A stretch of DNA of 64,000 nucleotides, from assembly GCA_016839555.1 (NCBI GenBank), contig JAEOUA010000006.1, positions 288,001-352,000 of the forward strand, given 5' to 3'. Position numbers and translations under genes: made by a program. Under the pieces are notes generated by a model, which was given only the letters and a program-made list of their open reading frames with translations, was not told where the DNA came from and did not search any database. The DNA comes from Promethearchaeota archaeon (GTDB lineage: Archaea; Asgardarchaeota; Lokiarchaeia; Sigyniarchaeales; SOKP01). Positions 29,077 to 61,091 of the stretch are shown here, one piece after another (position 1 is the stretch's first letter; each line of letters begins with the position of its first letter).

Positions 29077-30204
29077 ATGATTATTTCTCAATTGAAAGGA
29101 ATTGACCCTGTAATAAAAAAAATTTTAAGAAAAAGTCAGACAAATGAGGAAATCACTCCAGATGAAGCTTTAAAACTACTAAAAGTATCTGGAAGAGAAT
29201 TTTCTGCCTTACAATATGTCGCAAATCAAATTTGTCAAGAAAAAAAAGGGAATGTCGTTACGTTTGTAGTAAATCGAAATATCAATTTTACAAATATTTG
29301 TTCCAAACAGTGTCTCTTTTGTTCTTTTAGTCATCTTGAGAATCATGAAGATGCATTCTTACTAACAATGGAAGATATTAGGAATAAGGCAATTGAGGCA
29401 AAAGAATTGGACTGTACAGAACTATGCATTCAAGGAGGGATAAATCCTAATCTATCTTTTGATTATTATTTAGATATTCTAAAAACTGTAAAAAAGGTTG
29501 ATCCAAATATCCATACTCATGCATTTTCTCCTGAAGAAATCTTTTTTATGTCAAGGCTTTATGATGATTATATTGAAGCTACATTAAAACAACTGAAAAA
29601 AGCAGGATTAGATTCTATCCCTGGTACCGCTGCTGAAATGTTAGTTGATAAAATCCGAAAAATAATATGCCCAAATAAGATTTCTACCGCTCAATGGATT
29701 GAAATTATCACCACATCTCATGAATTGGGTATTCCAACCACCTCCACAATGATGTATGGACATATTGAAGACTTAGAGGATAGAATAACCCATCTTACAA
29801 TTTTGAGAAACATTCAAAAAAATACCTTTGGAATCACTGAATTTGTCCCCTTACCGTTTGTTAAGGGAAATCCTGCTTTATCAAAATTAAAGAAATACCC
29901 TTTAAAACCCAACTATGGTATGAGTGATTTAAAGTTGTTCTGTGTTGCGAGGTTATTTTTAAATAACTATATTGATAATATTCAGACTTCATGGGTTAAA
30001 TTAGGGCCTAAATTGGCCCAAGTTTCCTTAAATTATGGAGTTAATGATTTTTCAGGCACTTTAATGGAAGAAAATATATCCAGAAGTGCTGGAGCAGAAT
30101 TTGGACAATATCTATCTCCGAGTGAAATGAAAACAATTATTAGAAACGCAGGTCGGATTCCTGCGCAACGAGATACTTTATATAATATACTTAGAAAATT
30201 TTAA
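29077..30204 (+). CDS. cofH: FO synthase subunit CofH (radical SAM)
   Basis: NRNINFTNICxxxCxFC, QGG, HAFSPEE, PGTAAE, MYGHIE, EFVPLPF, IQTSWVKLG, GTLMEENIS. Confidence 0.93.
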   Translation: MIISQLKGIDPVIKKILRKSQTNEEITPDEALKLLKVSGREFSALQYVANQICQEKKGNVVTFVVNRNINFTNICSKQCLFCSFSHLENHEDAFLLTMEDIRNKAIEAKELDCTELCIQGGINPNLSFDYYLDILKTVKKVDPNIHTHAFSPEEIFFMSRLYDDYIEATLKQLKKAGLDSIPGTAAEMLVDKIRKIICPNKISTAQWIEIITTSHELGIPTTSTMMYGHIEDLEDRITHLTILRNIQKNTFGITEFVPLPFVKGNPALSKLKKYPLKPNYGMSDLKLFCVARLFLNNYIDNIQTSWVKLGPKLAQVSLNYGVNDFSGTLMEENISRSAGAEFGQYLSPSEMKTIIRNAGRIPAQRDTLYNILRKF

Positions 30205-36794: not shown

Positions 36795-38381
36795 CTATTC
36801 AAAATCTTGGATATATGGTTTACCCATTTCTAAACAAAATTCAGCTTTACTAAGTTCTCTCCCCAAATAATTAAGATGTTGAGAATGATCCGTTAATTGT
36901 AAATCAATTATACACTTACTTATATCTTCTGCATTTGTTCCAATTATAGTTTTAATTAAATCGTGGGAATTAGAATAAAACAGTATATAAATTTTTTTTT
37001 TATAGTGATTGACATAAATTTTAAAATATCCCTTTTTATCAGGCTCATAGGATGGATCTCTTTTATTAATAATGATTGGATTTTCATTTAAATCTATTCT
37101 CGGCATTTTCTGACTGGTTTTTCCTTTCGCTTTAAATATTTGAATGCCCTGGTTGATAGGGGGTGATTTTTTATATTTTGAGACATAATTTAATTTTACA
37201 GCTTCTTTTAATTCTTTCACGCCACCCATTAATTTTGTACTATGCTCTACTGTAAAAAGAATTCCCATATCTAATTCAACAGCTATACTTGCTAATAATC
37301 CATTAATACCTACTGAATCTATATCCATCAATTCAACCACATTTGAAATCCCAAAAAACATCGGTAATTCGAATTTTTTGAATTCGTCTTGCTGAACCTT
37401 TTTGCGATATAAGAAATATGTGGTAAGTGAAGGTACGATTCCGGGTGAAATAGGTGTTTCCAATAAGGGATCGGCGATTAATTTAGTAAAGCCTAAGTTA
37501 AACATTTTTTCAGTGAGAGTAAATAAATTTTGGACACGAGTCTGAGGATCTTCGGGAAAATAACCCTTATTAATATTGGTTGGTAAAATTACAATCGGAA
37601 TATCTTTTGGAATACTAATGAATTCTTTATAATTACCAATATCAAGACTTAGTATCATATCTATTTTTTCCTCTACAGCTGAATGGATTTCTTCAGTATT
37701 CATAGAATCTATGCTTAGAAGTATATTAAAATTGGATTGTAATAATTTAATAATTTCTTTTACTCGACTGGGTTTGGGTTTATTTGCGATGCATCCAATA
37801 TCTATTATATCAGCCCCAGAATCTATATAATGTTGTGCTTTCTTAATAATTGATTTATCAGACTTTTTTGTGCAATTTACTATTTCTGCGATTATTGGAG
37901 GAGGCAAATCCCTTCCAATCATTATATCGCTAACTTTTTTATTGATATAATAATTTGCTTGATCTATATTTTTTTTGGCATTATTAATTTGATCTTGAAC
38001 TATTTTTTGATATTCAGTTTCTCCAGTTAATTTGAGTTGTTTATCTGCTGGAAGTTCGGTGGAGAGTTCAATACTCTCTATATTTTCCAAAATTAATGGA
38101 AGGTCAGAAGCAAATTCCGGGCCTTTTCTTATGGAAATAGAAAATTGTTCTTCAAGATTTTTAGAACTCCATTGTATAAATCCAGGAAGTAATACTAAAT
38201 CATAGGATGAAAGATCTATAGACTTTAAAGCTTGTTTCGCTAATTTTTGAGTTATAAATGCCGAAATAGAAATAGGTACTTTATATACATTAATCTGATG
38301 TCCTTTAATTGAATTTGAAATTTTTTTTAATATAGAATAACTTTGTTGTCCAGTTAAGATCAATATATTAATAGAAATCAC
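36795..38381 (-). CDS. Dihydropteroate-synthase-like protein (methanopterin-linked, TIGR00284 type) with C-terminal DUF4346-like domain
   Basis: ILTG, VLLPG, KGP..ASDLP, GADIIDIG, SIDS, IADP, N..EL.D.DS.G.N, DKKGYF..HLNYLGREL. Confidence 0.82.
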   Translation of the reverse strand: MISINILILTGQQSYSILKKISNSIKGHQINVYKVPISISAFITQKLAKQALKSIDLSSYDLVLLPGFIQWSSKNLEEQFSISIRKGPEFASDLPLILENIESIELSTELPADKQLKLTGETEYQKIVQDQINNAKKNIDQANYYINKKVSDIMIGRDLPPPIIAEIVNCTKKSDKSIIKKAQHYIDSGADIIDIGCIANKPKPSRVKEIIKLLQSNFNILLSIDSMNTEEIHSAVEEKIDMILSLDIGNYKEFISIPKDIPIVILPTNINKGYFPEDPQTRVQNLFTLTEKMFNLGFTKLIADPLLETPISPGIVPSLTTYFLYRKKVQQDEFKKFELPMFFGISNVVELMDIDSVGINGLLASIAVELDMGILFTVEHSTKLMGGVKELKEAVKLNYVSKYKKSPPINQGIQIFKAKGKTSQKMPRIDLNENPIIINKRDPSYEPDKKGYFKIYVNHYKKKIYILFYSNSHDLIKTIIGTNAEDISKCIIDLQLTDHSQHLNYLGRELSKAEFCLEMGKPYIQDFE

Positions 38382-38631: not shown

Positions 38632-40107
38632 TTACATTTGGACTGCTGCTTTTAGCCCTAATCCTTTAGCGACTCTATCTCCCCAAGTTTCATCAGCTTT
38701 ATAGAAATAAGTTAGCATCCTTTCTTGGATAAACGTAGGTACGGTTTTAAGACTATTAACCAGATTTTGTATAAGACGATCTTGTTCATCTGCTGGCATT
38801 AATCTATAGAGATTTCCAGGCTGTATAAAATCAGCATCTACTCTGGGTTGTCCATATCTATCAGCATCTCCAGAAATTTTTAGTGGAGGTTCTTTAAATT
38901 TAGGATCCTCTTTAGGACCTCCGAAGCTATTGGGTTCATACACAGGAGAAGCTCCTGCATTATCGTCAAATCTCATAAAGCCATCACGATGATAGGTATT
39001 TACTTTTGCATTCTTTGGTCTATTTACCGGTAATGACTGATAATTTACTCCTAATCGGTAGCGATGAGCATCTGCATACGAGAAGAGTCTTCCTTGTAGC
39101 ATTTTATCTGGTGAGAACGAAATTCCGGGAACCTTATTAGAAGGATCGAATGCTGCTTGTTCTATTTCTGCAAAATAGTTTTTTGGATTCTTATTTAATT
39201 CCATTATTCCTACTTTTATTAATGGATAATCTCCATGGGGCCAAACCTTAGTTAAATCAAAAGGGTTCCATTCATAAGTTTCTGCTTCTAATTCTGGCAT
39301 TATTTGGACACTAAGTTCCCATTTTGGATAATCTCCACGCTCAATTCTCTCATATAAATCGCGTGTCGCCCAGTCCGGATCAATACCTGCAATTTTATCT
39401 GCTTCTTCTTGCATAAAATTTTTAATGCCTTGTAATGTTTTAAAATGAAATTTGACCCAGAAACGCTCATTATCTGCATTTATAAAACTATAGGTATGGC
39501 TTCCATATCCATTCATGTGGGTAAATCCATAGGGAATGCCTCGGTCCGAGAAAAGAATAGTGACTTGATGTAGGGACTCGGGAACTAATGACCAGAAATC
39601 CCACCACATCGTTTGGGAGCGTAGATTATTTTTAGGCATCCGTTTTTGAGTGTGAATAAAATCACTGAATTTTAAAGGATCTCTGACAAAAAACACAGGT
39701 GTGTTATTTCCTACTAAGTCCCAGTTGCCTTCCTCTGTGTAAAATTTAAGCGCAAAACCTCTCACATCTCTTACTGTATCCGCTGAACCTCTTTCTCCTG
39801 CTACAGTCGAAAATCTAGCTAATACCTCTGTTTCTTTCCCGACTTCTGAGAATATTTTTGCCTTAGTATATTTTGTTATATCATGTGTCACGGTAAACGT
39901 ACCATACGCTCCTGCTCCTTTTGCATGAACAACTCGTTCTGGTATTCTTTCTCTAGCAAATGTCGCTAATTTCTCCATTAAATGTACATCTTGCATGAGA
40001 ATTGGGCCTCTTTCACCAGCAGTTATTGAATTTTGATTATCTTCTATGGGAGCGCCTCCAGCAGTAGTTAGGGTATCTTTACTTTTTTTAGGTTCTTTAT
40101 ATTCCAT
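38632..40107 (-). CDS. katA: Monofunctional heme catalase (small-subunit clade)
   Basis: [43 protein letters not shown]. Confidence 0.96.
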
Positions 40108-40383: not shown

Positions 40384-41490
40384 TTATTTATTGTTCTTAC
40401 GATTTAAATAGTCTTTTTTGAATGGAATGAAGATATCGTCTAAAATTGATCCTGATGCGTGATTTAATTCTAAATTATTAACAATGGGTTTATATTTCCC
40501 TCCTAATAAACCATCAGCTATATAGGCGGCTCCTTGGGCGGCTCTCTTTGCTATTTGACTATAAGTTTTCATTAATCTTACAGGTATAAAATCATTTAAA
40601 GCATCATAGATGTTATGTTGAATATAATTAATGTTTGCACCCCTCCCTGCTAATAATATTTCTTTTTTTTTTTCTTTTTCTGAAAATGAGGAGGAAATAG
40701 AATATACTGCTTTTTGAACGCTTGAAATGTAAGCTTGGAAGGCAATTCGGGTTTGTTCATCCTTTTCTGCCAAGAGTGAGATTTCTTTCAAGCTTAAATC
40801 TGAATACCCTGCAATATAAGCTACACCACCTTTATATATATTTTCCTTCTTGATTTCTTTTATTAAATACGCTAATTCTCCATCTAAACTTCCACAGGCT
40901 CTAAATCCCATTATATTTGATCCCCCAATTCCATCAATGATTTTTCCGTTTTCAATCGCTAATACAGCAGTAAATCCATATCCAATTTCAACCATGATGA
41001 AATTTGTTCTTTCAGGAGGGAGATTATAGGTTTCCATTTGATCTTTTATTCCCACCACAGCGGTACATAATTTATCTGCAGTCCCCATATCGATTTTATT
41101 GATTTTTCGATATCTCGGTACGGTTGAGAGATGTTTTACGCCGGGAACCATGACACCGGGAATATTTTCTTTTTTAATTAATCTTAATATTTCTCCTAAT
41201 CCTAGTAATTCTTCTTTTTCTTTTTTCTGGAATTTTAATAAGGTTAAGAAAATATCTTTTTCGGTAAGTTCAGAACTTTTTCTTAAAGGTAATCCAAATC
41301 CACTAGGAGCAACCATTAAATCAATCTTATGTTTTTTATGTAATGATTTGATAACAGTAATACATTTACGGGGCTCTCGTATTATATCTTTAGTTGGAAT
41401 AGATGTATCTAATATGATCTGATCATCATTTAAACCGAAAAAATCCCAACTTAGGGAGCCAGGATCGATACCTAAGACGGTTTTAGTCAT
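40384..41490 (-). CDS. DUF1464 family protein (ASKHA fold, butyrate-kinase related)
   Basis: GIDPGS, APSGFG, PGVKHL, DMGTADK, DGIGG, AAQGAA. Confidence 0.82.
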   Translation of the reverse strand: MTKTVLGIDPGSLSWDFFGLNDDQIILDTSIPTKDIIREPRKCITVIKSLHKKHKIDLMVAPSGFGLPLRKSSELTEKDIFLTLLKFQKKEKEELLGLGEILRLIKKENIPGVMVPGVKHLSTVPRYRKINKIDMGTADKLCTAVVGIKDQMETYNLPPERTNFIMVEIGYGFTAVLAIENGKIIDGIGGSNIMGFRACGSLDGELAYLIKEIKKENIYKGGVAYIAGYSDLSLKEISLLAEKDEQTRIAFQAYISSVQKAVYSISSSFSEKEKKKEILLAGRGANINYIQHNIYDALNDFIPVRLMKTYSQIAKRAAQGAAYIADGLLGGKYKPIVNNLELNHASGSILDDIFIPFKKDYLNRKNNK

Positions 41491-44287: not shown

Positions 44288-45253
44288 TTATTCTACCCAA
44301 CCTATTCCAACTACACAGCCTTGATAATCAATCATTTTATTTTTAGTAAACCCCGCTTTTACCAAATCACTTTTCAATTCTTCCTCCGTAAAAATAGTAT
44401 CAGAAATAGATTCTTTATAGATTTTTAAAAGTAAATCCGCAGTAACATCGTCAGTAAGAGGAAAGTCTGCTTTTGTTACTACAATAATCATCCCTCCTGG
44501 CTGAAGAATCCTATGGAGTTCCTTTAACACTTCAACCTCATTCATTCTAAAAAAATTGGTATTTTTTTTATAGTCCGGTATCGCAACCATTTCAATGAAA
44601 TCATTAGGCTCTCTAATTGTTTTTTTATATACTTCTGAAATATGAATATCCATCAGTTCTGTTTCAGTATAATTCTCATAGTTTTCTTTCTTAGAGAGAA
44701 TAAAAACTTCATCAGCTAATGTTTTAAATAAACTTATAAGTCTCAAAAAAATATGCTTGGAGAACCATACTGCCATAATATTTTCTAAATGGTCTTTATT
44801 GCTAATTTTTTTTATCCGGTCCGTTAACCCCTCGTCAAACTGTATAACATCTGGAATCACACTGCTATCCATAAAAAATTGTAGCAGATATTTTAATAAA
44901 TAATTGGTTAGTGGTGTGGCCTCGACTGTTTGAACTCTTCTCTTATGATTAAGGTTAAATTTTACTAAACCTCGTTTTTCGAGGTTAGATAAATTATTAT
45001 AAAAACTGGAAGTAGAGAGATCTGAATTACTTTTTTCTTTTTTCTCAGTATATTCAAGATATTTGGCTTCATATTCACTTAAATTTATATCTTTGAATTT
45101 ATTTACGTTTATTTTGTTATTTTGAATTAATTCATTTACAATTACATAAAGAGTGTATCTTACAATTGGCTTTCCATACTCTAACAATAAATTTAGAGTA
45201 ATGATTTCTATAAGTGATAGATCAATAAGATTTCCAATTCGTAACTTTTTCAT
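44288..45253 (-). CDS. Putative regulator: N-terminal winged HTH plus C-terminal methyltransferase-like fold
   Basis: STSSFYNNLSNLEKRGLV (wHTH); LKELHRILQPGG and L.KAGF (class I MTase C-terminal motifs); no GxGxG. Confidence 0.6.
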   Translation of the reverse strand: MKKLRIGNLIDLSLIEIITLNLLLEYGKPIVRYTLYVIVNELIQNNKINVNKFKDINLSEYEAKYLEYTEKKEKSNSDLSTSSFYNNLSNLEKRGLVKFNLNHKRRVQTVEATPLTNYLLKYLLQFFMDSSVIPDVIQFDEGLTDRIKKISNKDHLENIMAVWFSKHIFLRLISLFKTLADEVFILSKKENYENYTETELMDIHISEVYKKTIREPNDFIEMVAIPDYKKNTNFFRMNEVEVLKELHRILQPGGMIIVVTKADFPLTDDVTADLLLKIYKESISDTIFTEEELKSDLVKAGFTKNKMIDYQGCVVGIGWVE

Positions 45254-45435
45254 AATTCGTTCTTATTTTTAAATAATTAAAATTTATTAATAAGATTTTC
45301 AAAATTGAAAATTATTTATACCAAAAAATGAAAATACTTTAATATAAAGTTATAAATTATAATAATTAGAATTAAAAATTTTAAAAATAATCTTTCTATA
45401 AAAAATTGAGAAAAATTAGAGAGGTATATCAATAA

Positions 45436-47937
45436 ATGAGTAAAACTTCAGATTCCTCTGAATTTAAGAAACAGCATCCTTTTGAGGTGGCAAAACCTCA
45501 CGATATGCTTCCACGATCTAAATGGCTTCGTGAATATTATTTTAAAGGAGCTGAAAGAGAATGGAACAATGAATTCTCTCCTTTCACTACTGGAACAGAA
45601 TGGGACATATTGTTTAATGAATTAAATTTTTACATCGTCCCAGAGGTGTATATGTACATTGGAAACAAAGGAAAGGGGGTATTTGAAACTTCCTTCAGAT
45701 CAAGCGCAATCCCCATTGATTTACCGGAAAATTTTTGGGATTTATCCATTCCTGAACGAAGAGTTCTTTTTTTTGAAAAAGCAATGGTGGATTATATCCC
45801 TTACGAAATTATCTCTGAAAACGATTTAATCGCGGGTGGACGTTATAACACTCAATTAAGTCATTGCTTAGATAATAAAGAAACTAAGAAATTTTGGAAA
45901 AAATTAATTAAAACGCGTGAAAAATTCTTCAAATTCCATAAAAGTGGATTCGGTAACACAGGCGCTACCTCAGGGCATATTATTCCCGACTATGAAACGG
46001 TTATAAATAAAGGTTTTAAATTTTTGCATGATAAAGCGAAGAGGAGCTATGAAAATCTCAGTGGAAAAGAGAAAAACGGAGCAGAAGGGGCAGAATTGCG
46101 AGCAATGATAAGAGCCACTGAAATCCCCAGAAAATTAGCAAAGAGATATGCAGAAGAATGTCGAAGATTAAAGGAAGATGCCACTCCAGAAAGAGCAGAA
46201 GAATTAGAACAGATGGCAAAAAGTTTAGAAAGAGTACCATGGGAACCAGCAGAAACCTTCTGGCAGGGTGTTCAAGCAATATGGTTAACGCATATGTTAA
46301 TTATGGCAGAAGAATCATACCCGGGAGCGGGCACATCTTTTGGCAGAACAGACCAACACCTCTGGCATTTATATAAGAAAGATGTAATTGAAGAGAAAAC
46401 CATCACCAAAGACTTCGCAAAAGAAATATTGGGAAGCTTTTGGTTTCATTGCAATACTGCATATGATGCGATGATACGAGTAGGGAAACAAGGGATCACA
46501 TCAGGCTTCGGACAATTAATGACACTTTCAGGCTGTGGTCCAAATGGGGAAGATCTGACGAATGAACTAACGTATACCATTTTAGAAGTCATAGATGAAT
46601 GGTCTCCGATCCTCGAACCGAAACCAAATATCCGCCTACATCGAAATTCTCCGGATAAATTACTTAATATCATTGTAGACATGGTGTCACGCGCTCAAGG
46701 AGCACCATTTCTGTTAAATTTCGATGAAAGAAGTATTGCAGGAATGGTCTTGGAAGGAATTCCCAAAGAGCAGGCATGGGATTATGCATGTGTGGGCTGT
46801 TTAGAAAATACAATGCAAGGAAATGATCGCTCTGGAACCGTGAATTGTAATCCAAACTTAGCAAAAAGTATAGAATTAACCTTATGGAACGGCAAAAATA
46901 TGCCGGGAAATGTAGTTAAAGACTGGACAAAGGAAGGAGAGCAATTTGGACCAAAAACAGGAGATTCAGAAAATTTTGAAACATGGGAAGAGTTTTTTGC
47001 CGCATGGAAAAAGCAAATCGAATTTATCATTAGATATCTTGTGGAAGTTAATAATGAAACAGAAGAACTACGTGGAAATTATCTTCCAACTCCTTATTTA
47101 TCCACTTTTGTAAGAGGATGCATTGAACAAGGCTTAGATGTGAGAAATGGGGGAGCAGAATTAAGTTTTATCACCGTGGAAGGGGTTGGCTATGCCACTA
47201 CCGTTGATTCTTTATTAGCAATCAAAAAACTGGTGTATGAGGATAAAAAATATACAATTTCGGAAATAAAGGATGCATTAGTTAAAGATTTTCAAGGAAA
47301 AGAAAATTCGATCATTCAAACCACTTTAATTCATAAAGCTCCAAAATACGGAAATGATAATGATGAAGCGGATGAATTGGCTCGAATAGTAATGAAAACA
47401 TGGGCTGATGAAACATGGAAATATAAAACTCCCACCAACTTTCAATATCGACCTGGAATGCTTTCGTGGAATTATTGGGCGGGTGCTGATGCAATGCTTA
47501 CACCAGCAACTCCCAATGGTCGGAATGCCGCGACCTATTTGTCGAATGCAATTTGTCCTACAGATGGCGTCGATATAAAAGGCCCCACAGCGGTGACTAA
47601 TTCCGTAGGAATGGCCCTCGGAGGCAAGACTGAGCATGGTGAATATATCAATTACTTACCAAATGGCGCAAGTCACACCATCACCTTTAATCCAAGCATA
47701 CTACGAGTCCCAGAAAATAAGGAGAAATTTAAATCATATCTTCGTGGATATATTGAAAATGGAGGAACTTCTTTGCAAATTAACATGATTGATGCTGATG
47801 TGTTGCGCGATGCTCAAAAGCACCCGGAGAACTATGAAAACCTGCTGGTCAGAATTACTGGCTATAATGCGTATTTTACGGCGATTGGGAAAGAGCTTCA
47901 AAACGAGATAATAAAGCGAGAATCTCATCAAATATAA
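45436..47937 (+). CDS. Glycyl radical enzyme (non-PFL, single-Cys eliminase-like class), substrate unknown
   Basis: Cys loop CVGCLE, glycyl motif VRITGY, SFGR.DQ, APKYGND, ATPNGR. Confidence 0.92.
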   Translation: MSKTSDSSEFKKQHPFEVAKPHDMLPRSKWLREYYFKGAEREWNNEFSPFTTGTEWDILFNELNFYIVPEVYMYIGNKGKGVFETSFRSSAIPIDLPENFWDLSIPERRVLFFEKAMVDYIPYEIISENDLIAGGRYNTQLSHCLDNKETKKFWKKLIKTREKFFKFHKSGFGNTGATSGHIIPDYETVINKGFKFLHDKAKRSYENLSGKEKNGAEGAELRAMIRATEIPRKLAKRYAEECRRLKEDATPERAEELEQMAKSLERVPWEPAETFWQGVQAIWLTHMLIMAEESYPGAGTSFGRTDQHLWHLYKKDVIEEKTITKDFAKEILGSFWFHCNTAYDAMIRVGKQGITSGFGQLMTLSGCGPNGEDLTNELTYTILEVIDEWSPILEPKPNIRLHRNSPDKLLNIIVDMVSRAQGAPFLLNFDERSIAGMVLEGIPKEQAWDYACVGCLENTMQGNDRSGTVNCNPNLAKSIELTLWNGKNMPGNVVKDWTKEGEQFGPKTGDSENFETWEEFFAAWKKQIEFIIRYLVEVNNETEELRGNYLPTPYLSTFVRGCIEQGLDVRNGGAELSFITVEGVGYATTVDSLLAIKKLVYEDKKYTISEIKDALVKDFQGKENSIIQTTLIHKAPKYGNDNDEADELARIVMKTWADETWKYKTPTNFQYRPGMLSWNYWAGADAMLTPATPNGRNAATYLSNAICPTDGVDIKGPTAVTNSVGMALGGKTEHGEYINYLPNGASHTITFNPSILRVPENKEKFKSYLRGYIENGGTSLQINMIDADVLRDAQKHPENYENLLVRITGYNAYFTAIGKELQNEIIKRESHQI

Positions 47938-47965
47938 ATAATAGTAAGGAGGTAATTATAGTATC

Positions 47966-48970
47966 ATGGCAAGTGCATCTAAAGTATTGATTTTCGAAAT
48001 ACAGAAAATGTCTACAGAAGACGGACCTGGAATTCGAACAACAGTCTTTATGAAGCATTGTCCATTAAAATGTGTATGGTGTCATAATCCAGAATCGATC
48101 CCGAAAAAGCCACTATTAGAATGGTTAAAACACAAGTGCATAGGATGTAAAACATGTGTAGAAACATGCAAACAGCATGCGCTCTCTCTTGATAAGGAAG
48201 GACTTCACATAGATAGAGAGAAATGTATTAGCTGTGGAGAGTGTGTAGAAGCATGTCCAAGCACAGCACTTCATATGTTTGGCACTTGGTGGGACTTAGA
48301 AGACTTATTTCACGAAGTACATAAAGATAGGGTATATTATATAAAATCTGGCGGAGGAATTACGGTCTCTGGTGGAGAGCCCACCCTTCAGCCCGAATTT
48401 ATAGAACATTTCTTTAAAAAATGTAAGGAAAATGGGCTTTCTACAGCCTTAGATACCTGTGGATATGCATCAAAAGAGACTTTTAAGAAAATATTACCCT
48501 ATGTCGATTTAATATTGTTAGATATTAAGGAAATAGATCCAGAAAAGCATAAGGAATATACAGGAGTTTCCAATGAAAAAATTCTTGAAAATGCCAAATG
48601 GCTTGCCAGCTATGTAAAAGATCATAACAAAAAAATCTGGATAAGAACACCTCTAATTCCAAACTATACTGCGACGAAAGAAAATATTAAGGGAATTGGA
48701 ACTTTTATCGTCAACGAGTTAGAAAATATTCCCGAGAGGTGGGATCTTCTGGCGTTTAATAACTTATGCGCCGCCAAATATGATCGCCTTGATATCGACT
48801 GGCCGCTAAACGGTTTACCATTGATGAGAGAGGAAACAATTGAAAAATTATATAAGCTGGCGAAAGATACTGGCGTTGCCAATGTGCAATGGTCTGGATT
48901 AACTAAAAAAAAGGAAAGTGAAGAAGAGATATCTTCTTATGATGATACAGTAAAATTACCTTCTTGTTAA
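47966..48970 (+). CDS. Glycyl-radical-enzyme activase with 2x[4Fe-4S] insertion
   Basis: EDGPGIRTTVF, CPLKCVWCHNPES, two ferredoxin motifs, SGGEP, DTCG. Confidence 0.94.
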   Translation: MASASKVLIFEIQKMSTEDGPGIRTTVFMKHCPLKCVWCHNPESIPKKPLLEWLKHKCIGCKTCVETCKQHALSLDKEGLHIDREKCISCGECVEACPSTALHMFGTWWDLEDLFHEVHKDRVYYIKSGGGITVSGGEPTLQPEFIEHFFKKCKENGLSTALDTCGYASKETFKKILPYVDLILLDIKEIDPEKHKEYTGVSNEKILENAKWLASYVKDHNKKIWIRTPLIPNYTATKENIKGIGTFIVNELENIPERWDLLAFNNLCAAKYDRLDIDWPLNGLPLMREETIEKLYKLAKDTGVANVQWSGLTKKKESEEEISSYDDTVKLPSC

Positions 48971-48999
48971 TAAAAATTAAATAAAAAAGATGACTGTGT

Positions 49000-49905
49000 A
49001 TGGCAAAAAATAAAACGAAAAATAAGACAAAAGGACCTCAATGGTCTAAGACATTATCTCCGGAAGCAATTGAGTTTACCCAACCCGCAATAATGTTAAA
49101 AATGGTATCGACAATTGATGATCGTGGGTGGCCTCATATCACCATCATCACAAGTAATCGTGCGTCTGCTAAAGATAAGATTGTATGGGGTGCCTTCACA
49201 GATGGGACGAGTAAAGAAAACGTAAAAAAAAATCCCAAGCAAGGGATTCTTTATATGACTGCTGAAATGCCCTTTAAATTCCTTCAAGCGAAAGCGGATT
49301 TTGATTATACAACGAAAGAAGGAGATGATTTAGAATTCTTCAACAACACCGAATTAATGCGCTATTTCACTTATGTCAGGGTTCATACTGCATATTATAA
49401 TAATCTGGTAGCTGCAACCGGAATAAGAGACCTTCCACTGTTGGGAATCGTGTCTGGGATTGTAAAAGATTTAATCGGGAAAGGAGGGTTAAAAACAGGT
49501 TTAGATGAAGAGCGGCTGAATCCAATAGGATATAAGCTCTATACTGCTCCTATTGCAGTACGAGCAATCGCATATTTGGATCCGTCCGATGGCTATCCTA
49601 TAATAATTCCTTGTATTCCACTACAGGCCGCTGATCATAATAGACTCGTTTTTCCCTTGGCATCAAACAGCGATGATTTGCTCAAAATTCCAGAAGGAGC
49701 AAAAGTAGCGGTTCATTGTATGAATTTTGATTTTGCTAATCTAGTTGTGAAGGGAACTTATACAGGATTTAAAAAATCACGATTATTCAAATTTGGTGTA
49801 ATCGAAATCGAGGAAGTCTATAATTCTTGCCCTCCTGTGTTTGGTGTAATATATCCTGAAGAGAGGAGATATGAAAGACCAAAGGTAGTTGATTTTCATC
49901 TTTAA
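49000..49905 (+). CDS. Tandem PNPOx-like split-barrel (FMN/F420-binding) protein
   Basis: Two units: STIDDRGWPHI..SKENVKKNPK and AYLDPSDGYP.I..; co-oriented with the GRE genes after a 29-bp gap. Confidence 0.68.
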   Translation: MAKNKTKNKTKGPQWSKTLSPEAIEFTQPAIMLKMVSTIDDRGWPHITIITSNRASAKDKIVWGAFTDGTSKENVKKNPKQGILYMTAEMPFKFLQAKADFDYTTKEGDDLEFFNNTELMRYFTYVRVHTAYYNNLVAATGIRDLPLLGIVSGIVKDLIGKGGLKTGLDEERLNPIGYKLYTAPIAVRAIAYLDPSDGYPIIIPCIPLQAADHNRLVFPLASNSDDLLKIPEGAKVAVHCMNFDFANLVVKGTYTGFKKSRLFKFGVIEIEEVYNSCPPVFGVIYPEERRYERPKVVDFHL

Positions 49906-49974
49906 AAATAAATTTTATTCTTTTTTTTATATTTATTTTTTTAAACTTTAATTTTACATAAAAATTTTGTACAA

Positions 49975-50256
49975 TGGTATCTTCTTATAGCAGTAGTCAA
50001 AAATTTGATTATTGGGATTTTACTCTAATACTATTCACTTAAATCAGAAATTCCAGAAATTAAATTAAAAGGCAAATTATTGCTTGTAGCATTTATATCT
50101 ACTACTGTCGGAGCGGTTTTAGATACAACTTTACCATTTACAATCATAACTTTACCAATATTCAGGTCCTTAGAGATTTTTGGGTCTATTGCTTTTTATG
50201 GCGGATAAATTTTGCCAGATTGGATGAAGAGATTATTTTTAAAAGAAATTAAGTAA
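49975..50256 (+). pseudogene. 3' remnant of a multi-pass membrane protein gene with two in-frame stops
   Basis: LIIGILL*YYSLKSEIPEIKLKGKLLLVAFIS..GAVLD..FYGG*ILPDWMKRLF; TAA at 50026 and 50206. Confidence 0.65.
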
Positions 50257-50311: not shown

Positions 50312-51052
50312 GTGAACTTGTTTCGAAAACAATTTGGAATGGAATATAATCATTTATACGAAATTTTAGCCACTTCAATTAGAGATAATCCTTTAAAAAA
50401 AAAAATTATTCCAAATACAGCAGCTATGGGTATAAGGTTAGTAGAAAATAATATTATCAAAATCGCTCCCTATCCTACTACCCAAACTTATAAAAATTTA
50501 AAAGAGAATGGAGTCATCATATTAAATCTGGTAGATAATGTATATTTATTTGCATTGGCTGCTTTAAAAGAACCCGATTCACCGATAGGATTAAAAAAAT
50601 TTCCTAAAGAAAAATATCATTACATAAAGGTTCCGAATAAAGAAAATTTAGCTAAAAATATTCCAAGAAATACTGTTGACAATTTAAATGGTATTCCATA
50701 TATTAAAAGCGCTAATGGGATATTAATTTGTAAAGTTATTGATGAAAATGACAAAATAAAGAAAAATAAATTAGGGGAGATCAAAATCACAGAATTCCAA
50801 TTAAATTGTATCTTTCATAAAAAATTTAAGGAGAGTGTTAAGCTTTTTAATAGAGCTGATAATCTAGCCCTTGAGAGTATTATTTTAGCAACACGATTAA
50901 AGATAGCATATGAAAAACAAGATCAAGAACTATGCTCGGTAATTTATAATCAAATTTTAAATTATAGAAAAGATATAGCTCGATTTTCGAAAAATAAAAA
51001 CGCTAATGAAACTATGAAATTAATAGATAATTATATTAGAAGATATTCATAA
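50312..51052 (+). CDS. DUF447 family protein (methanopterin-cluster associated)
   Basis: YE..AT..PNTAAMG, TQTYKNL, FNRA..LE..I.ATR; adjacent to mptD and mptG. Confidence 0.75.
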   Translation: MNLFRKQFGMEYNHLYEILATSIRDNPLKKKIIPNTAAMGIRLVENNIIKIAPYPTTQTYKNLKENGVIILNLVDNVYLFALAALKEPDSPIGLKKFPKEKYHYIKVPNKENLAKNIPRNTVDNLNGIPYIKSANGILICKVIDENDKIKKNKLGEIKITEFQLNCIFHKKFKESVKLFNRADNLALESIILATRLKIAYEKQDQELCSVIYNQILNYRKDIARFSKNKNANETMKLIDNYIRRYS

Positions 51053-51058
51053 AATTTG

Positions 51059-51454
51059 TTATTTTTCAATAATTTTCTCGATAAACATTAAAGGGTATTC
51101 AAGATCTTTTACCCAATCTATTCTTGCTGTTATTTCTACCTGTTCAAACTGTACAATCACTTTTGCTCGGATAATTTTTCCCGTTATTTCATCGTAATCA
51201 AATTCATTGGACTTTTCTCCTTTAATATTATCTCGATCTAAATTTACTTCTACTTTTTTTATAAATGGTTGGCATTTCAGGGATGCTTCTATTCCCTTTT
51301 CAATAGAGGAAATTACTTTTTGATCCCGAGAAATAGGGATTCCACATAAAATGTGATAAAGAGCTCCGAGTTTAATACCTGCCTCAAAACATGCCCTTTC
51401 TCTTTCAGTTATATCAGAGGCAAAATAAATTTTATCTACAGTTTTTTCTTTCAT
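51059..51454 (-). CDS. mptD: Archaeal dihydroneopterin aldolase
   Basis: ERACFEAGIKLGALYH..G.P, QPF, YPLM. Confidence 0.88.
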   Translation of the reverse strand: MKEKTVDKIYFASDITERERACFEAGIKLGALYHILCGIPISRDQKVISSIEKGIEASLKCQPFIKKVEVNLDRDNIKGEKSNEFDYDEITGKIIRAKVIVQFEQVEITARIDWVKDLEYPLMFIEKIIEK

Positions 51455-51459
51455 TTTTC

Positions 51460-52464
51460 TCAGTCAAGAATTTCAAATTCTGCTCCTGTGTTGTTAGGCT
51501 TACATAAATAGAAATGCCCGCCAACATGCTTAATTTGAGTTTTAACGGCTCTTAATAATTTTTTAGCTTCTGAGTGGGACTCTGTGATTCCAATCACGCT
51601 GGGACCGAAAGAACTCATCCCATATGCCTTTACACCATATTTTTCCATAAAATTTAAAAGATTCTTAACCACATTATGTTGTAATTGAATTTCCCTTTTT
51701 TTAAACCCGATTGATTGGATTTTTTTTAATCCTTCTCCAAAACAAGTTAAATTCTTTTTAAGAATCCCAGGAATTATTTTCATCAAAATTTGATGGGAAA
51801 CTTCATTAACCTCTTCTCTCGGAATGGGTGTATGAGATTGAAAAATAGATATTTCTTCATCTCCATATGCTCCTTTTTTAACATTTGGGATGGCAAGTAC
51901 AAAACGCCAATGTTCCGGAATATCATATCTGAGAATTGTTAATGCCGGATCGGCAGAATTAGCGGCAGATGAGGGAAGGAATGTTTCTTTTTCCTCCCCC
52001 TTGCCAAAATCATGGCCTCCATCTAAAATGAACCCTCCCATTTCAAATCCTCGCCAACCAATACCAGACGTACCTCCTCTTTCTACTATCTTTGTTAAAG
52101 TTTTATGAGAGACATTTAAATTTTTCAATTTCGCGATTGATGTTGCTATAGCCAGGCTTAATTGTGTTTTAGAACCAAGACCAACATGGGAAGGATAATA
52201 TTGTTTTAAATTGAAATGAAAATTTTTATTATCTATTTTATATGCTTTAAAAACCTTTGAAGCTTTTTCATTGATTACTTCAATTGATTCGCGGTAATAG
52301 TGGTTTGCCTCAATTTTAAATTCTTTCGCTGCATTAGTAGCTTCAAATACCACATTCGGGCGGTCAAGCATGAGACCTATTCCCCCATCGACTCTTCCGG
52401 TGTATCCATTCTCATCGATTAAAGATAAATGAATTCTGCATGGAGTTGTGACTCTGATTTTCAT
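51460..52464 (-). CDS. mptG: Beta-ribofuranosylaminobenzene 5'-phosphate synthase
   Basis: P.RIH..LID, HVGLGSKTQ, RGGTSGIG, GGFILDGGH, GMSSFGP. Confidence 0.92.
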   Translation of the reverse strand: MKIRVTTPCRIHLSLIDENGYTGRVDGGIGLMLDRPNVVFEATNAAKEFKIEANHYYRESIEVINEKASKVFKAYKIDNKNFHFNLKQYYPSHVGLGSKTQLSLAIATSIAKLKNLNVSHKTLTKIVERGGTSGIGWRGFEMGGFILDGGHDFGKGEEKETFLPSSAANSADPALTILRYDIPEHWRFVLAIPNVKKGAYGDEEISIFQSHTPIPREEVNEVSHQILMKIIPGILKKNLTCFGEGLKKIQSIGFKKREIQLQHNVVKNLLNFMEKYGVKAYGMSSFGPSVIGITESHSEAKKLLRAVKTQIKHVGGHFYLCKPNNTGAEFEILD

Positions 52465-57587: not shown

Positions 57588-58979
57588 TTGAGCGATTTAG
57601 AAGGATTAGCGAGAAATTTAATGAAAAAAGGATATAAAGATGAGCAAATTATTGATCGCCTCGTTCAAGAATATCTTGATTATAAAGAGATTAACAAAGA
57701 ATTAGCTTATAAACTTTCTGCGGGTGTTCTTGAAGAGTGTAAAAAAAGTGATATTTCTAAGCTTAGTGATCCATTTATAAAAAGTCTTCTTAATTTTGAT
57801 AGGGCAAATATTACTGTTGGGAGGCAGGGAGTGGGATGTCGTGGAGCGGGTGATTTTTTTGTACATAAATTAATAACTGAATTTTGTGAGACCAGCACAG
57901 AGGCATATTTATCCCCTAAATCCTTGGATGATGCTGGAGCCGTTCGATTACAAGATATTGAATCATTATATAATAATATAGATAAAAAAGATATAATTAT
58001 CGTATCAAAAATGGAAGGAATTCATTCTCGATTGAGTGATTTCCCTTTCATATGTGGATTTCATGTAACCCGAGCTGCACTCCGGGATTTATATGTAAAA
58101 GGGGCGCAACCCATCTCTATTTTGGTTGATGTGCACTTAGGAGATGATAGTGATGTCGGAAAATTATTTGATTTCATGGCGGGGATTTCTACTGTCTGTG
58201 AAATAGCAAAAGTTCCTCTTACTGCTGGTTCCACATTGAGAATTGGGGGTGATATGGTTATCGGAAATCGCTTAGTTGGCGGAATAGGAGGTGTGGGTAT
58301 CGCAAGCACTAATTTATTTGCTAGGAGAAATATTAAACCAGGAGATAGAATATTAATGACTGAGGGTGCGGGAGGAGGCACTATTTCAACAACAGCAATT
58401 TATTCCGGAAACCATCATGTTGTAAAAGAAACAATGAATATAAAATTCTTAAAGGCCTGCGAAATAATATTGAATTCAGATTATAAAGATAATATCCATG
58501 CTATGTGTGATGTAACTAATGGAGGATTGCGTGGGGATCTTTATGAGATAAATTATGAAGCAAATTGCGGAGTGACTGTCTTTGAAGAAAAAATTAGAAA
58601 ATTAGTCAATCCTATAGTTTTAAAATTATTAGAACAAACAGGAGTAGACTATTTAGGTGTTTCATTAGATGCACTATTAATTTATTGCACTGAAGATACT
58701 TCAAAAAAAATAATCTCTGATTTAAGAAAACAAAATATTAATTGCGCTGAAATCGGATATGTGGATGAATCTAAAAAGATTTCTATAGTGTTTCAGGATA
58801 AACAAGTCAAGAAGATATTTCCTAAATTTCGAGAATCTGCATATACCAAAATTAAAAAGGTAATAGGAGAAAAAACTCCTGAAGAAAAAGAAGTTATGGA
58901 AAAATCAATAGAAGAAACGGCTAAGAAAGCGTTAATCAAAAGGAAAAAGATGATTGAGTATATAAAAAATTTAACATAA
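57588..58979 (+). CDS. AIR-synthase-related (PurM/HypE/ThiL superfamily) protein
   Basis: GVGCRG.GDF, DDAG, GIHSRLS, RDLYVKGA, DVTNGG.RGD. Confidence 0.85.
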   Translation: MSDLEGLARNLMKKGYKDEQIIDRLVQEYLDYKEINKELAYKLSAGVLEECKKSDISKLSDPFIKSLLNFDRANITVGRQGVGCRGAGDFFVHKLITEFCETSTEAYLSPKSLDDAGAVRLQDIESLYNNIDKKDIIIVSKMEGIHSRLSDFPFICGFHVTRAALRDLYVKGAQPISILVDVHLGDDSDVGKLFDFMAGISTVCEIAKVPLTAGSTLRIGGDMVIGNRLVGGIGGVGIASTNLFARRNIKPGDRILMTEGAGGGTISTTAIYSGNHHVVKETMNIKFLKACEIILNSDYKDNIHAMCDVTNGGLRGDLYEINYEANCGVTVFEEKIRKLVNPIVLKLLEQTGVDYLGVSLDALLIYCTEDTSKKIISDLRKQNINCAEIGYVDESKKISIVFQDKQVKKIFPKFRESAYTKIKKVIGEKTPEEKEVMEKSIEETAKKALIKRKKMIEYIKNLT

Positions 58980-59877: not shown

Positions 59878-60288
59878 ATGGCCGTAAAAAAATATATAAA
59901 AAGGTTTGTACAATTTAGTGGAATAATACTTATAATCATGGGGATTATATTAATTATTATTGGGTTTTCAAGGTTTTTTTCAACAATATTTAATATATCA
60001 CCGTTTAGTTTTAATTTGAGTTTTATGGGTTCTAATAGGATATACTTTTTGATAGGAGGTCTAATGATTCCAGTGGGTTTTTTTATAACAATTTTTAGTT
60101 CTATTTTTATTAAGATTTCTAGCATAGATCAAGTATCTACGATTAATTATGAACAAAATATTTATAAAAAACCTCCTGAAACACCAATAGAAGACAAAAA
60201 AGAAAAGACTTTAATATGTATTTATTGCGGGCAAGAAGTTAAAAATGACCAAGAAATATGTTCTTATTGTGGAGCAAAATTAAAATAG
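59878..60288 (+). CDS. Two-helix membrane protein with C-terminal zinc ribbon
   Basis: Two hydrophobic helices; CIYCG..CSYCG. Confidence 0.75.
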   Translation: MAVKKYIKRFVQFSGIILIIMGIILIIIGFSRFFSTIFNISPFSFNLSFMGSNRIYFLIGGLMIPVGFFITIFSSIFIKISSIDQVSTINYEQNIYKKPPETPIEDKKEKTLICIYCGQEVKNDQEICSYCGAKLK

Positions 60289-61091
60289 ATCAACCCGCTC
60301 CTCCTATATCCTTCAATATCAATAGTTATATAGGAAAATCCCAATTTTTTTAGTTTATTCTTAATACGTTCTATATTATTTCTGTTAAAAATTTTGAAAA
60401 GATCTTCTGCTAAAAATTCAATCCTTATGAGATTTTCTTTATGATATCTAACCCTTAATTGCTTAAGGTCAAATTCTGTTTTGAGAAATTCCTCAGCTAG
60501 TTTTATTTTATTTACTAATTCTTCATCAATACAAATTCCATAAGAGATCCTGGTGGCAAAACATGCATTGGGGGGTTTATTTTTCACTTCTAAATCAAAG
60601 AATTCACTCAATTGAATAATATCTTCTTTATCAATATTGATATCTATATAGGGAGTAGCTATTCCTAATTCTTTTATAGCTTTATAACCAGGGCGATAAT
60701 CATTCAAATCAGAGAGATTGCTACCTTCAACGATTAGATCATATTGCAGCTCATTTTTAATTTGCAAAAATTTTGAATAAATAAGGTGCTTGCAAATATA
60801 ACAACGATTTTTGGGATTATCTCGAAATTCCTTTATTTTTACTGGGTCAAACTCTATAACTCTCTGTGGGATATTATGATTTTGCGCGAATTGAGCAGCA
60901 TCGTGGAGTTCTTTCTCTGAAAAAATTATTGATGATGCAGTGAATAATAAGGTTTCTTTTGAATATAAATTTGAAAGATAGGCCAACAAGGAGCTGTCTA
61001 TTCCTCCTGAAAAAGCAACTATAATTTTTTTATTTTGCATAGATGCTTTTAACTTGTTGAGTTTGCTTTGAAGCTTCTTAGATAATTCCAT
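60264..61091 (-). CDS. larE: LarE-like ATP-dependent sulfur transferase (PP-loop)
   Basis: AFSGGIDS, NRCYICK, DYRPG, ACFATR, RVR, GF.YITID.EGYR. Confidence 0.85.
   Translation of the reverse strand: MELSKKLQSKLNKLKASMQNKKIIVAFSGGIDSSLLAYLSNLYSKETLLFTASSIIFSEKELHDAAQFAQNHNIPQRVIEFDPVKIKEFRDNPKNRCYICKHLIYSKFLQIKNELQYDLIVEGSNLSDLNDYRPGYKAIKELGIATPYIDINIDKEDIIQLSEFFDLEVKNKPPNACFATRISYGICIDEELVNKIKLAEEFLKTEFDLKQLRVRYHKENLIRIEFLAEDLFKIFNRNNIERIKNKLKKLGFSYITIDIEGYRRSGLIYFNFAPQ

Follow-up and report, generated by a model that had tools for sequence, protein, structure and literature searches.

What reaction could be served by a glycyl radical enzyme (GRE), an oxygen-sensitive catalyst, that is encoded next to its activase and a tandem split-barrel protein? 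The question is raised by a locus in the window (the whole stretch of 64,000 nucleotides of Promethearchaeota archaeon DNA analysed here), for which an earlier note had proposed a new GRE class. The three genes form a real unit, with counterparts in hundreds of Asgard archaea and anaerobic bacteria. With a probability of about one half, we regard them as a functional module around a GRE of an uncharacterised family, in which eliminase-type chemistry on a polar substrate would be combined with a flavoprotein redox step.

Organization of the locus

The features discussed below are located as follows:

29077-30204: CofH (FO synthase subunit), in the same window
44288-45253, minus strand: divergent gene of a 321-aa protein, possibly of wHTH and methyltransferase fold, with a sub-threshold TrmB match only
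45436-47937, plus strand: GRE of 833 aa, VGCLEN family (Pfam PFL-like and Gly_radical)
47966-48970, plus strand: GRE-activating radical SAM enzyme of 334 aa (TIGR02494; Radical_SAM and Fer4 domains)
49000-49905, plus strand: tandem split-barrel (PNPOx-like) protein of 301 aa, a fused pseudo-dimer by predicted model and Foldseek
49948-50247 (approximate), plus strand: pseudogene remnant, C-terminal fragment of a multi-pass membrane protein (blastx, tblastn)

The unit of GRE, activase and split-barrel protein spans 45436-49905. Gaps of 28 bp (GRE to activase) and 29 bp (activase to split-barrel gene) separate the window ORFs, exactly as the earlier note had given them for a compact three-gene operon. 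Its impression that the operon is less AT-rich than its surroundings was also borne out by measurement: GC content is 0.377 in the operon and averages 0.296 (sd 0.026) in the genome, which places the operon at the 99.8th percentile of equal-sized windows, and its GC3 of 0.30-0.31 (mean 0.232) is at about the 95th percentile. The pseudogene suspected downstream is real; it retains the C-terminal ~70 residues of a 240-266-aa multi-pass membrane protein, with an in-frame stop (blastx/tblastn E-values of 2e-5 to 2e-8), and intact copies of this membrane protein adjoin the GRE in loci L031 and L033/L004. Shell proteins, small Fe-S subunits, P5C reductase and dehydrogenases for aldehydes or alcohols are all missing among the annotated neighbours, in agreement with what had been read from the window. 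The divergent gene, which had been counted as the regulator of the system, fared differently. Its orthologue was found among the loci compared only in L023, a locus of the same genus, and it cannot be retained as a part of the system. The TrmB match of its product has an E-value of 0.009, and its atlas neighbours include PadR/ArsR and methyltransferase clusters.

Family membership of the GRE

Members of the GRE superfamily are recognized by a PFL-like ten-stranded barrel and a C-terminal glycyl radical domain with an RVxGY-type motif. The 833-aa protein has the PFL-like barrel fold and a C-terminal RITGY domain, with an activase nearby; it scores 426 bits with PFL-like (PF02901) and 75 bits with Gly_radical (PF01228), and its predicted model (pLDDT 89.5) reaches a TM of ~0.8 to solved GREs. 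All motifs quoted in the earlier note were mapped in it, namely WLREYYFKGAEREWNNEF at residues 30-47, ESYPGAG at 293-299, CVGCLE at 452-457, MLSWNYW at 675-681 and RITGY at 806-810. Judged by sequence, the putative radical relay is complete (Gly809 and Cys455), and the enzyme carries the predicted acid-base pair of 1,2-eliminase/dehydratase GREs, Cys-x-Glu and His181. Cys455, Glu457 and His181 align with Cys433, Glu435 and His164 of glycerol dehydratase, and their equivalents are invariant or at least 90% conserved across the VGCLEN family and the other sampled GREs. The neighbouring 334-aa protein is by sequence a standard GRE activase: it scores 331.6 bits with TIGR02494 (cut-off 174.35) and has the CxxxCxxC motif as well as a ferredoxin insert of the two-cluster type.

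The best sequence and fold matches are the B12-independent glycerol/1,2-propanediol dehydratases (PDB 1r8w, 5i2g, 9rco; 314 bits, TM 0.79). They share the radical Gly, the thiyl Cys, the Glu at Cys+2 and the His (His164 = His181) with the window GRE, and their activase is of the same ferredoxin-insert type; identity, however, is only ~25-30%. Concerning the residues H281, S282, Y339, D447 and Y640, which we take to be those that bind the diol in glycerol dehydratase, H281 is replaced by A, S282 by G, D447 by V and Y640 by L, while Y339 falls in a deletion. Aldehyde/alcohol dehydrogenase and microcompartment genes are missing among the annotated neighbours as well, and a split-barrel partner is found instead. 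A second group consists of HypD (trans-4-hydroxy-L-proline dehydratase), CutC (choline TMA-lyase), IslA/IseG (isethionate sulfite-lyase), HpsG/HpfG and the anhydro-sugar-phosphate dehydratases YbiW/PflD. These have the eliminase architecture and Cys-x-Glu in common with the window GRE (TM 0.74-0.80), each with a dedicated activase, as here. Nevertheless, Asp278 of HypD is aligned with a Gly, and the window GRE is not accompanied by the pathway genes of the HypD-, CutC- and IslA-type systems (P5C reductase, shell proteins, sulfite reductase).

The window GRE remains below every NCBIfam equivalog cut-off, its best scores being 345-385 bits for the HypD-CutC-IslA-type models against cut-offs of 1000-1100, and it reaches 426 bits with the subfamily model TIGR01774 (cut-off 678). 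Bacterial members of the family likewise fall below the equivalog cut-offs. In the tree, VGCLEN GREs form a monophyletic clade of their own, a distinct family that does not cluster with any characterised GRE, and the window enzyme is approximately equidistant from all solved eliminase-type GREs. Additionally, the family has 43 invariant positions that are rare among other GREs, including E293, Y295, D344, E394, K396, D464, R546, R672 and W678-N679-Y680; in the sequence alignment, the positions named fall in loops that correspond to those with which glycerol dehydratase and HypD bind their substrates. The substrate-binding residues of the known eliminases are thus not kept, and their loops appear to be replaced by family-specific invariants, many of them charged. 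These data support the proposal to the extent that the GRE belongs to none of the characterised classes.

The published labels for Asgard GREs do not fit the VGCLEN family. 2-oxoacid formate-lyases have been proposed for the cultured Asgard archaeon MK-D1 (PMC7015854), and homologues of the window GRE are named pyruvate formate-lyase in databases. Pyruvate formate-lyase (PflB/TdcE) belongs to the same superfamily and both enzymes have the C-terminal glycyl radical domain, but the adjacent Cys-Cys pair of formate-lyases is missing from the A-C-V-G-C-L-E loop, where Gly precedes the single thiyl Cys of V-G-C-L-E. TIGR01255 gives 89.6 bits only (cut-off 994.2), the PDB match to PFL covers just the C-terminal part (55 bits), and other PFL-like genes in the same genomes match the PFL-like profile with far higher scores, so that a pyruvate or 2-oxoacid formate-lyase is highly improbable. 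Asgard GREs have also been proposed as alkyl-/benzylsuccinate synthases, with the single conserved Cys and the ferredoxin insert of the activase as arguments (PMC8163825). Both features are present here, and the alkane degrader Desulfosudis oleivorans has a VGCLEN homologue; however, they are common to all non-PFL GREs, and the family is frequent in gut/rumen Clostridia and termite Treponema. Solved succinate synthases score 170-245 bits (TM 0.72-0.76) against 314 bits for eliminases, to which all the nearest folds belong (TM 0.79-0.80). Benzyl/alkylsuccinate synthases and 4-hydroxyphenylacetate decarboxylase, both of lower sequence and fold similarity, do resemble the present system in that their operons code for a further small protein, but theirs are small Fe-S subunits, whereas here it is a split-barrel protein of 140 aa (dimer-type) or 300 aa (fused). 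Genes of small beta/gamma subunits were not found among the window ORFs and do not recur in the conserved neighbourhood at the other loci, and a succinate synthase deserves very little credence.

Conservation of the triad and its split-barrel partner

The earlier note had made its reading depend on whether homologues of the GRE, too, have the split-barrel gene next to them, and this is indeed the case. Of 40 Asgard loci, 34 have the gene together with the GRE, and stop and start codons often overlap; in 28 of 29 bacterial loci it lies within 2.5 kb of the GRE. The activase adjoins the GRE in 36 of the 40 Asgard loci and is present in 27 of the 29 bacterial ones. The partner is retained beside GREs with as little as 43% identity, in both archaea and bacteria. 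In contrast, the earlier note had tacitly taken the system to be peculiar to this organism or to the Asgard archaea. This does not hold, as at least 588 relatives were found, with Chloroflexota, Desulfobacterales, Clostridia and Spirochaetes among them. In 17 of 30 bacterial loci the operon begins with a regulator of the GntR/FadR(FCD) class, which usually senses carboxylates. An aldehyde:ferredoxin oxidoreductase lies near the triad in 3 bacterial loci, and a SGSH-like sulfatase lies near it in 9 of 80 loci, in six of them just beyond the split-barrel gene. Levels of identity to orthologues of the same family run in parallel for the GRE and the genes that flank it.

The description of the partner as a two-domain PNPOx-like protein agrees with its predicted model (pLDDT 88.3), with two split barrels at residues 32-145 and 187-285. 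Foldseek matches it to FMN-, heme- and F420-binding structures, with a probability of 1.0 to FMN-binding split barrels. Its PNPOx_N score is sub-threshold (21.7 against the Pfam cut-off of 28.1). In Dehalococcoidia, where homologues carry a precomputed PF01243 match, and in some Asgard lineages the partner consists of one PNPOx domain. An example is family f21, where the orthologue beside the GRE reaches 42.7 bits; two closed f15 genomes have a single-domain copy at a distance of 19-24 kb from the GRE. Each half of the window protein aligns to the single-domain partners, indicating a fused asymmetric pseudo-dimer. PNPOx-like proteins typically have a KTKKNL-type motif at their flavin-phosphate site. 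This motif is invariant among the single-domain forms, while in fused proteins it is kept by the N-half only, as (S/T)(K/R)(K/E)N, and the C-half is without it. The fold and this one motif suggest that the partner may bind a flavin.

Each half shares the split-barrel fold of Swol_0183 (3in6), the FMN-binding protein of Desulfovibrio vulgaris, mycobacterial F420 reductases and HupZ (TM to target 0.6-0.75), and the S/T-K/R-K/E-N motif of PNPOx-like proteins is kept in the N-half. Identity to these proteins, however, is 12-20%, and the window protein differs in being a fused pseudo-dimer that is always linked to a GRE; we know of no GRE link for any of them. Some of the partner's structural neighbours bind heme, not flavin, which counts against the flavoprotein reading.

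FO synthase had been noted in the window, and its subunit CofH was located. The F420 link drawn from it is contradicted, since lineages without CofH carry the triad: CofH was found in 0/76, 0/7 and 0/11 sampled genomes of three triad-bearing Asgard families (f9, f2 and f29). For the same reason F420 is an unlikely cofactor of the partner. A role of the triad in methanopterin or F420 biosynthesis might be read from the window and 8-9 related loci, in which the triad lies between DUF1464/rubrerythrin and DUF447, MptD and RFAP synthase, with CofH and an MptH-like gene near. This context is nevertheless restricted to three genera of one family and occurs in 0/20 subfamily B loci. RFAP synthase is present in 1/76 f9 genomes, 48/76 of which have the GRE, and in 18/19 f14 genomes, 1/19 of which has it; to our knowledge, the bacterial hosts do not make methanopterin. 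The phyletic distribution contradicts such a role, which is hardly credible, and the methanopterin-biosynthesis neighbourhood is lineage-specific synteny.

Proposed function

According to the favoured reading, the activase would activate the GRE in a SAM-dependent manner, and Cys455 would then take a hydrogen from an OH- (or N-) substituted carbon in a small, polar and probably anionic substrate. Glu457 and His181 would help the neighbouring leaving group depart, so that a carbonyl or an imine is formed. The tandem split-barrel protein would hold one flavin, FMN rather than F420, in its N-terminal half and would perform a redox step on the GRE product (or substrate), GRE and flavoprotein being the catalytic unit. 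Neither a pyridine-nucleotide domain nor a conserved downstream enzyme points to the source or sink of electrons in the loci compared.

Gene order bears on two other roles for the partner. In five split loci (L025, L027, L087, L089, L111) the partner stays with the activase, away from the GRE, so that a dedicated low-potential electron donor fits too; as a flavodoxin substitute, it would reduce the activase clusters or maintain or quench the glycyl radical, leaving the substrate untouched. The overlap of activase and partner genes in many subfamily B loci and the fold match to the small FMN electron-transfer protein of D. vulgaris are in line with this role. On the other hand, at least nine loci (L029-L031, L082, L084, L095, L096, L108, L123) have the partner immediately behind the GRE, and the activase either comes next or is missing from the locus. 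Ferredoxins are abundant in triad-bearing genomes, and we know of no other characterised GRE operon that needs a private donor. We consider the donor role rather unlikely. One GRE homologue without the thiyl Cys keeps an overlapping partner gene, with no activase within 8 kb, which speaks against a donor and hints at a non-catalytic association. The partner could then be a non-redox subunit or a ligand/heme binder, i.e. a structural or regulatory GRE subunit, a carrier of substrate or product, or a protector against oxygen stress, and both the loss of the phosphate motif from its C-half and the presence of heme-binding HupZ and proteins of unknown function among its top structural matches would suit this. 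The invariance of the KTKKNL-type motif across single-domain forms and N-halves argues against it, and we judge it improbable.

Under the favoured reading of an eliminase-type GRE with a flavoprotein redox step, the module would be inherited vertically inside the archaeal family of the window and transferred between Asgard archaea and bacteria. More tentatively, and with low confidence, GRE and split-barrel flavoprotein may be one two-component catalyst, in which thiyl-radical elimination is obligatorily coupled to flavin redox and the substrate is a common polar metabolite. If so, the reaction type would be new for GREs, and the metabolite would be one used alike by sediment anaerobes, gut anaerobes and the Asgard lineage. 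As no member of the family has a known reaction, the triad is a well-defined target for new anaerobic chemistry.

The operon and its glycyl radical enzyme

The operon occupies 45436-49905 on contig C5 of a 3.74 Mb genome (29.6% GC) of the Asgard phylum (Promethearchaeota). It comprises three ORFs in one orientation, separated by spacers of 28 and 29 bp and followed by a gene remnant:

45436-47937 (+), glycyl radical enzyme (GRE), 833 aa, with PFL-like and glycine-radical domains
47966-48970 (+), radical SAM activase, 334 aa, above the cut-off of the GRE-activase model TIGR02494
49000-49905 (+), split-barrel partner, 301 aa, with a sub-threshold PNPOx_N match only
49948-50247 (+), membrane-protein remnant, no Pfam family, 240-266 aa in its full-length form

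Every checkable detail of the operon, spacing and motifs quoted in an earlier note was confirmed, all the motifs being present in the GRE. The operon had also been described there as less AT-rich than its flanks, and its GC content of 37.7% lies at the 99.8th percentile of equal-sized windows of the genome, with GC3 at about the 95th percentile among ORFs. Recent horizontal transfer was rejected as the cause, since the operon has diverged from its same-genus and same-family orthologues to the same degree as the flanking genes; constraint or expression is the likelier explanation. The pseudogene noticed downstream was located in the 406-bp spacer 3' of the operon as the last ~70 codons of a multi-pass membrane protein, with an in-frame stop within. 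Intact copies adjoin the GRE in two other Asgard loci (L033:11667-12467 and L031:6823-7551), and the remnant could be a lost transporter of the GRE system. The DUF447 gene after the spacer is intact and matches Pfam DUF447_N, as do its orthologues.

Together with their conserved split-barrel partner, this GRE and its relatives, named here the VGCLEN family after the Cys loop, are a real, widespread, strongly conserved and uncharacterised family within a known superfamily. Against the NCBIfam equivalogs, the GRE scored 385 bits for HpsG, 375 for HypD, 357 for HpfG and 345 for CutC (cut-offs 1000-1100), and 90 for PFL (cut-off 994); its score of 426 with the PFL2/glycerol-dehydratase subfamily model was also under the cut-off (678). 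No archaeal or bacterial member of the family reaches an NCBIfam equivalog, in agreement with the earlier placement of the enzyme outside the characterised classes. The best solved-structure match was the B12-independent glycerol dehydratase (GDH; 314 bits), followed by propanediol dehydratase, CutC, HypD, A. fulgidus PflD and IslA (266-297 bits), while succinate synthases (170-245 bits) and PFL (55 bits) were more distant. Likewise, the AlphaFold model (pLDDT 89.5) superimposed over nearly its full length on all eliminase-type GREs (Foldseek, ~870 columns, TM 0.79-0.80) and reached TM 0.72-0.76 with succinate synthases. An extra N-terminal domain was rejected because these alignments span nearly the whole chain; the 175 N-terminal residues left unmatched by Pfam are thus an ordinary GRE N-terminal region of divergent sequence.

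Residue-level alignments showed that the catalytic core is retained, namely Cys455, Glu457, His181 (equivalent to GDH His164) and Gly809. In contrast, the GDH residues that we take to be glycerol-binding are replaced (H281 by A, S282 by G, D447 by V and Y640 by L) or, for Y339, fall inside a deletion, whereas HypD Asp278 aligns to a Gly. When 31 members of the VGCLEN family were compared with 13 GREs from outside it, 43 positions proved invariant in the family and rare elsewhere. The family-specific residues include E293, Y295-P296 (a two-residue insertion), Y343-D344, E394, K396, L456, N458, D464, S466, R546, R672 and L676-W678-N679-Y680, and they concentrate in the loops that presumably hold the substrate-binding sites of GDH and HypD. 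We infer the steps of an eliminase-type radical mechanism, in which the GRE would act on a substrate unlike all characterised ones and probably polar or charged.

Spread of the triad and nature of the partner

In the protein search, the best 120 clusters were GRE homologues (71-88% identity), all named ones being Asgard, and the partner gave 385 homologues, often on contigs equal in length to those of the GRE hits. Of 301 genomes sampled from the phylum, 130 have the GRE and 97 the partner. The Asgard GREs fall into two subfamilies, A (64-100% identity to the query) and B (45-50%); the GRE of Lokiarchaeum ossiferum shows 63% identity. Clustering of all ORFs from 40 fetched Asgard loci (20 per subfamily) left just three families as conserved in both, with the GRE in 40, the activase in 36 and the partner in 34, and the stop and start codons of the triad often overlap. 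In two closed genomes of one Asgard family (f15) the GRE stands alone, with a single-domain partner gene 19-24 kb off. A pattern scan with one genome per GTDB species revealed at least 588 relatives. Among the matches listed, a bacterial clade at 53-56% identity covers Chloroflexota, Desulfobacterales (including Desulfosudis oleivorans), Clostridia, Ruminococcaceae, Treponema and other Spirochaetes, Bacteroidota and Myxococcota. The earlier note had made its reading depend on conservation of the split-barrel gene beside homologues, and the partner is indeed conserved in 34 of the 40 Asgard loci; of 29 bacterial loci with enough flank, 28 have it in tandem form no more than 2.5 kb downstream and 27 carry the activase. 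The literature searched on GREs (with PNPOx, sulfatase and Asgard) held no description of the VGCLEN family or of a GRE/split-barrel pairing.

In a quick maximum-likelihood tree of 48 sequences, the VGCLEN family forms one clade with a long stem and support of 100. Dehalococcoidia branch off at its base and Asgard subfamily B makes up a grade, within which is nested a crown where Asgard subfamily A is sister to the broad bacterial clade. This topology indicates that the whole module has passed between the domains one or more times, in either direction.

The modelled partner (301 aa, pLDDT 88.3) consists of two split barrels in tandem, each of which matches HupZ, mycobacterial F420 enzymes and FMN-binding proteins (3in6 and the one from D. 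vulgaris). Asgard family f21 and Dehalococcoidia have, at the position following the activase, a gene for a single-domain protein of ~139 aa, which scores above the PNPOx_N cut-off in f21 and has homologues with a precomputed PNPOx_N hit in Dehalococcoidia. It would be expected to represent the unfused, dimer-forming ancestor of the tandem protein. A KTKKNL motif is invariant in the single-domain forms and, in the alignment, is kept in the tandem N-half as S/T-K/R-K/E-N; by analogy with PNPOx-family proteins, we assume that it may form a flavin-phosphate site. The C-half has lost the motif and carries a ~23-residue deletion relative to the single-domain forms, which makes the fused partner an asymmetric pseudo-dimer that has one canonical phosphate-binding site at most. 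Rival roles for the partner are those of a private donor of electrons to the activase and of a non-redox subunit. The partner remains beside the activase in five split loci, and directly follows the GRE, with no activase, in at least nine others. Complex prediction for a Dehalococcoidia GRE (790 aa) and its single-domain partner (score 0.18, mark 0.32) weighs neither for nor against an association.

The pairing extends to a GRE homologue (L007:260-3669, 42% identical) with the thiyl Cys replaced by Phe and an overlapping split-barrel gene kept. Three bacterial homologues (P0249, P0250 and P0254) have neither the Cys nor the glycyl radical domain; P0249 nevertheless adjoins an activase (locus L009). 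These four Cys-less homologues are possible pseudo-enzymes.

Cofactor genes, regulators and other neighbours

The operon is surrounded by a methanopterin/F420 cofactor cluster encoding CofH, an MptH-like protein (TIGR00284), DUF1464, DUF447, MptD, RFAP synthase (NF040726), an AIRS-like protein and a LarE-like protein:

29077-30204, 36795-38381, 40384-41490, 50312-52464, 57588-58979 and 60264-61091, cofactor-cluster genes
38632-40107 (-), full-length haem catalase (Pfam Catalase, 662 bits; GC 0.378)
27562-28758 (-), 398-aa protein like the C-terminal part of cis-3-hydroxy-L-proline dehydratase (184 bits, cut-off 700)

The same synteny is confined to three genera (g1, g2 and g6) of one family and is missing from all the subfamily B loci. 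Of 76 genomes of family f9, 48 have the GRE and 1 has RFAP synthase, whereas of 19 genomes of f14, 18 have RFAP synthase and 1 has the GRE. Synthesis of a methanopterin/F420 precursor by the GRE was rejected on account of this lineage-limited synteny and these uncorrelated distributions. The F420 link proposed in the earlier note fared no better as a general rule: CofH was not found in f9 (0/76), f2 (0/7) or f29 (0/11), all triad-bearing families, which makes F420 unlikely as the general partner cofactor. DUF1464, DUF447 and the AIRS-like protein could catalyse methanopterin steps that are still unassigned. The haem catalase is inserted within the cluster, although the organism is a presumed anaerobe; it is absent from all 40 related loci compared and is possibly a lineage-specific acquisition. 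The 398-aa protein occupies the CofG position of related loci.

The divergent 321-aa gene (44288-45253, -) had been taken for the regulator of the system, a reading that the comparison of loci does not support. It gives only weak wHTH signals, with PadR/ArsR and methyltransferase clusters as atlas neighbours, and its sole orthologue among the loci compared is in the same genus; the regulators at other loci are unrelated to it, L031 having an ArsR-like one and bacteria the GntR/FadR type, with a GntR/FadR(FCD) gene directly upstream in 17 of 30 bacterial loci. No further conserved enzyme was found beside the triad among 112 bacterial flanking genes and the clustered archaeal and bacterial flanks, which gave minority associations only. 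An SGSH-like sulfatase occurs in 9 of 80 loci, from both domains, and in six of the nine it starts 1.8-3.0 kb after the GRE, just beyond the split-barrel gene. Desulfobacterales and several Asgard loci show this order (L136:15019-18350, L140:15396-18765, L091, L095, L108 and L109). Aldehyde:ferredoxin oxidoreductase was present in three bacterial loci, and in two Desulfobacterales loci it comes after the sulfatase; as a lead, these neighbours would suggest that the substrate is sulfated and the product an aldehyde. Additionally, FAD-dependent oxidoreductases lie near the GRE in six loci, as does an NMO/FabK-like flavoprotein in one Asgard genus, and an SCP2 lipid-carrier gene separates the partner from the activase in one Asgard genus (L029:12685-13047 and L030:13195-13554). 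These minority neighbours are compatible with conversion of an anionic, hydroxylated small molecule to a carbonyl product.

Published labels and significance

2-oxoacid formate-lyases have been attributed to the cultured Asgard archaeon MK-D1 (PMC7015854), and Asgard single-Cys GREs have been labelled alkyl/benzylsuccinate synthases from the single Cys and the ferredoxin-insert activase (PMC8163825). Neither label suits the VGCLEN family, since the Cys-Cys pair and the beta/gamma subunits are absent and eliminases are nearest; a formate-producing 2-oxoacid lyase, as in MK-D1 syntrophy models, and a hydrocarbon-activating succinate synthase are thus readings that do not fit it. Other PFL-like genes exist in these Asgard genomes and may suit the published labels. 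The genome studied here has four or more additional PFL-like GRE genes, which belong to other families and make the GRE set unusually large for an archaeon:

C10:456466-458412, C6:267993-269891, C1:225053-227038 and C7:234171-236300, further GRE genes

To our knowledge, each GRE family so far studied has led to a distinct anaerobic reaction (choline, hydroxyproline, isethionate, anhydro-sugars), and we know of no characterised GRE system that uses a flavoprotein-like third component. The FadR-type regulators upstream, along with the cultivable or well-studied bacterial hosts, offer a practical route to the substrate of the VGCLEN family.
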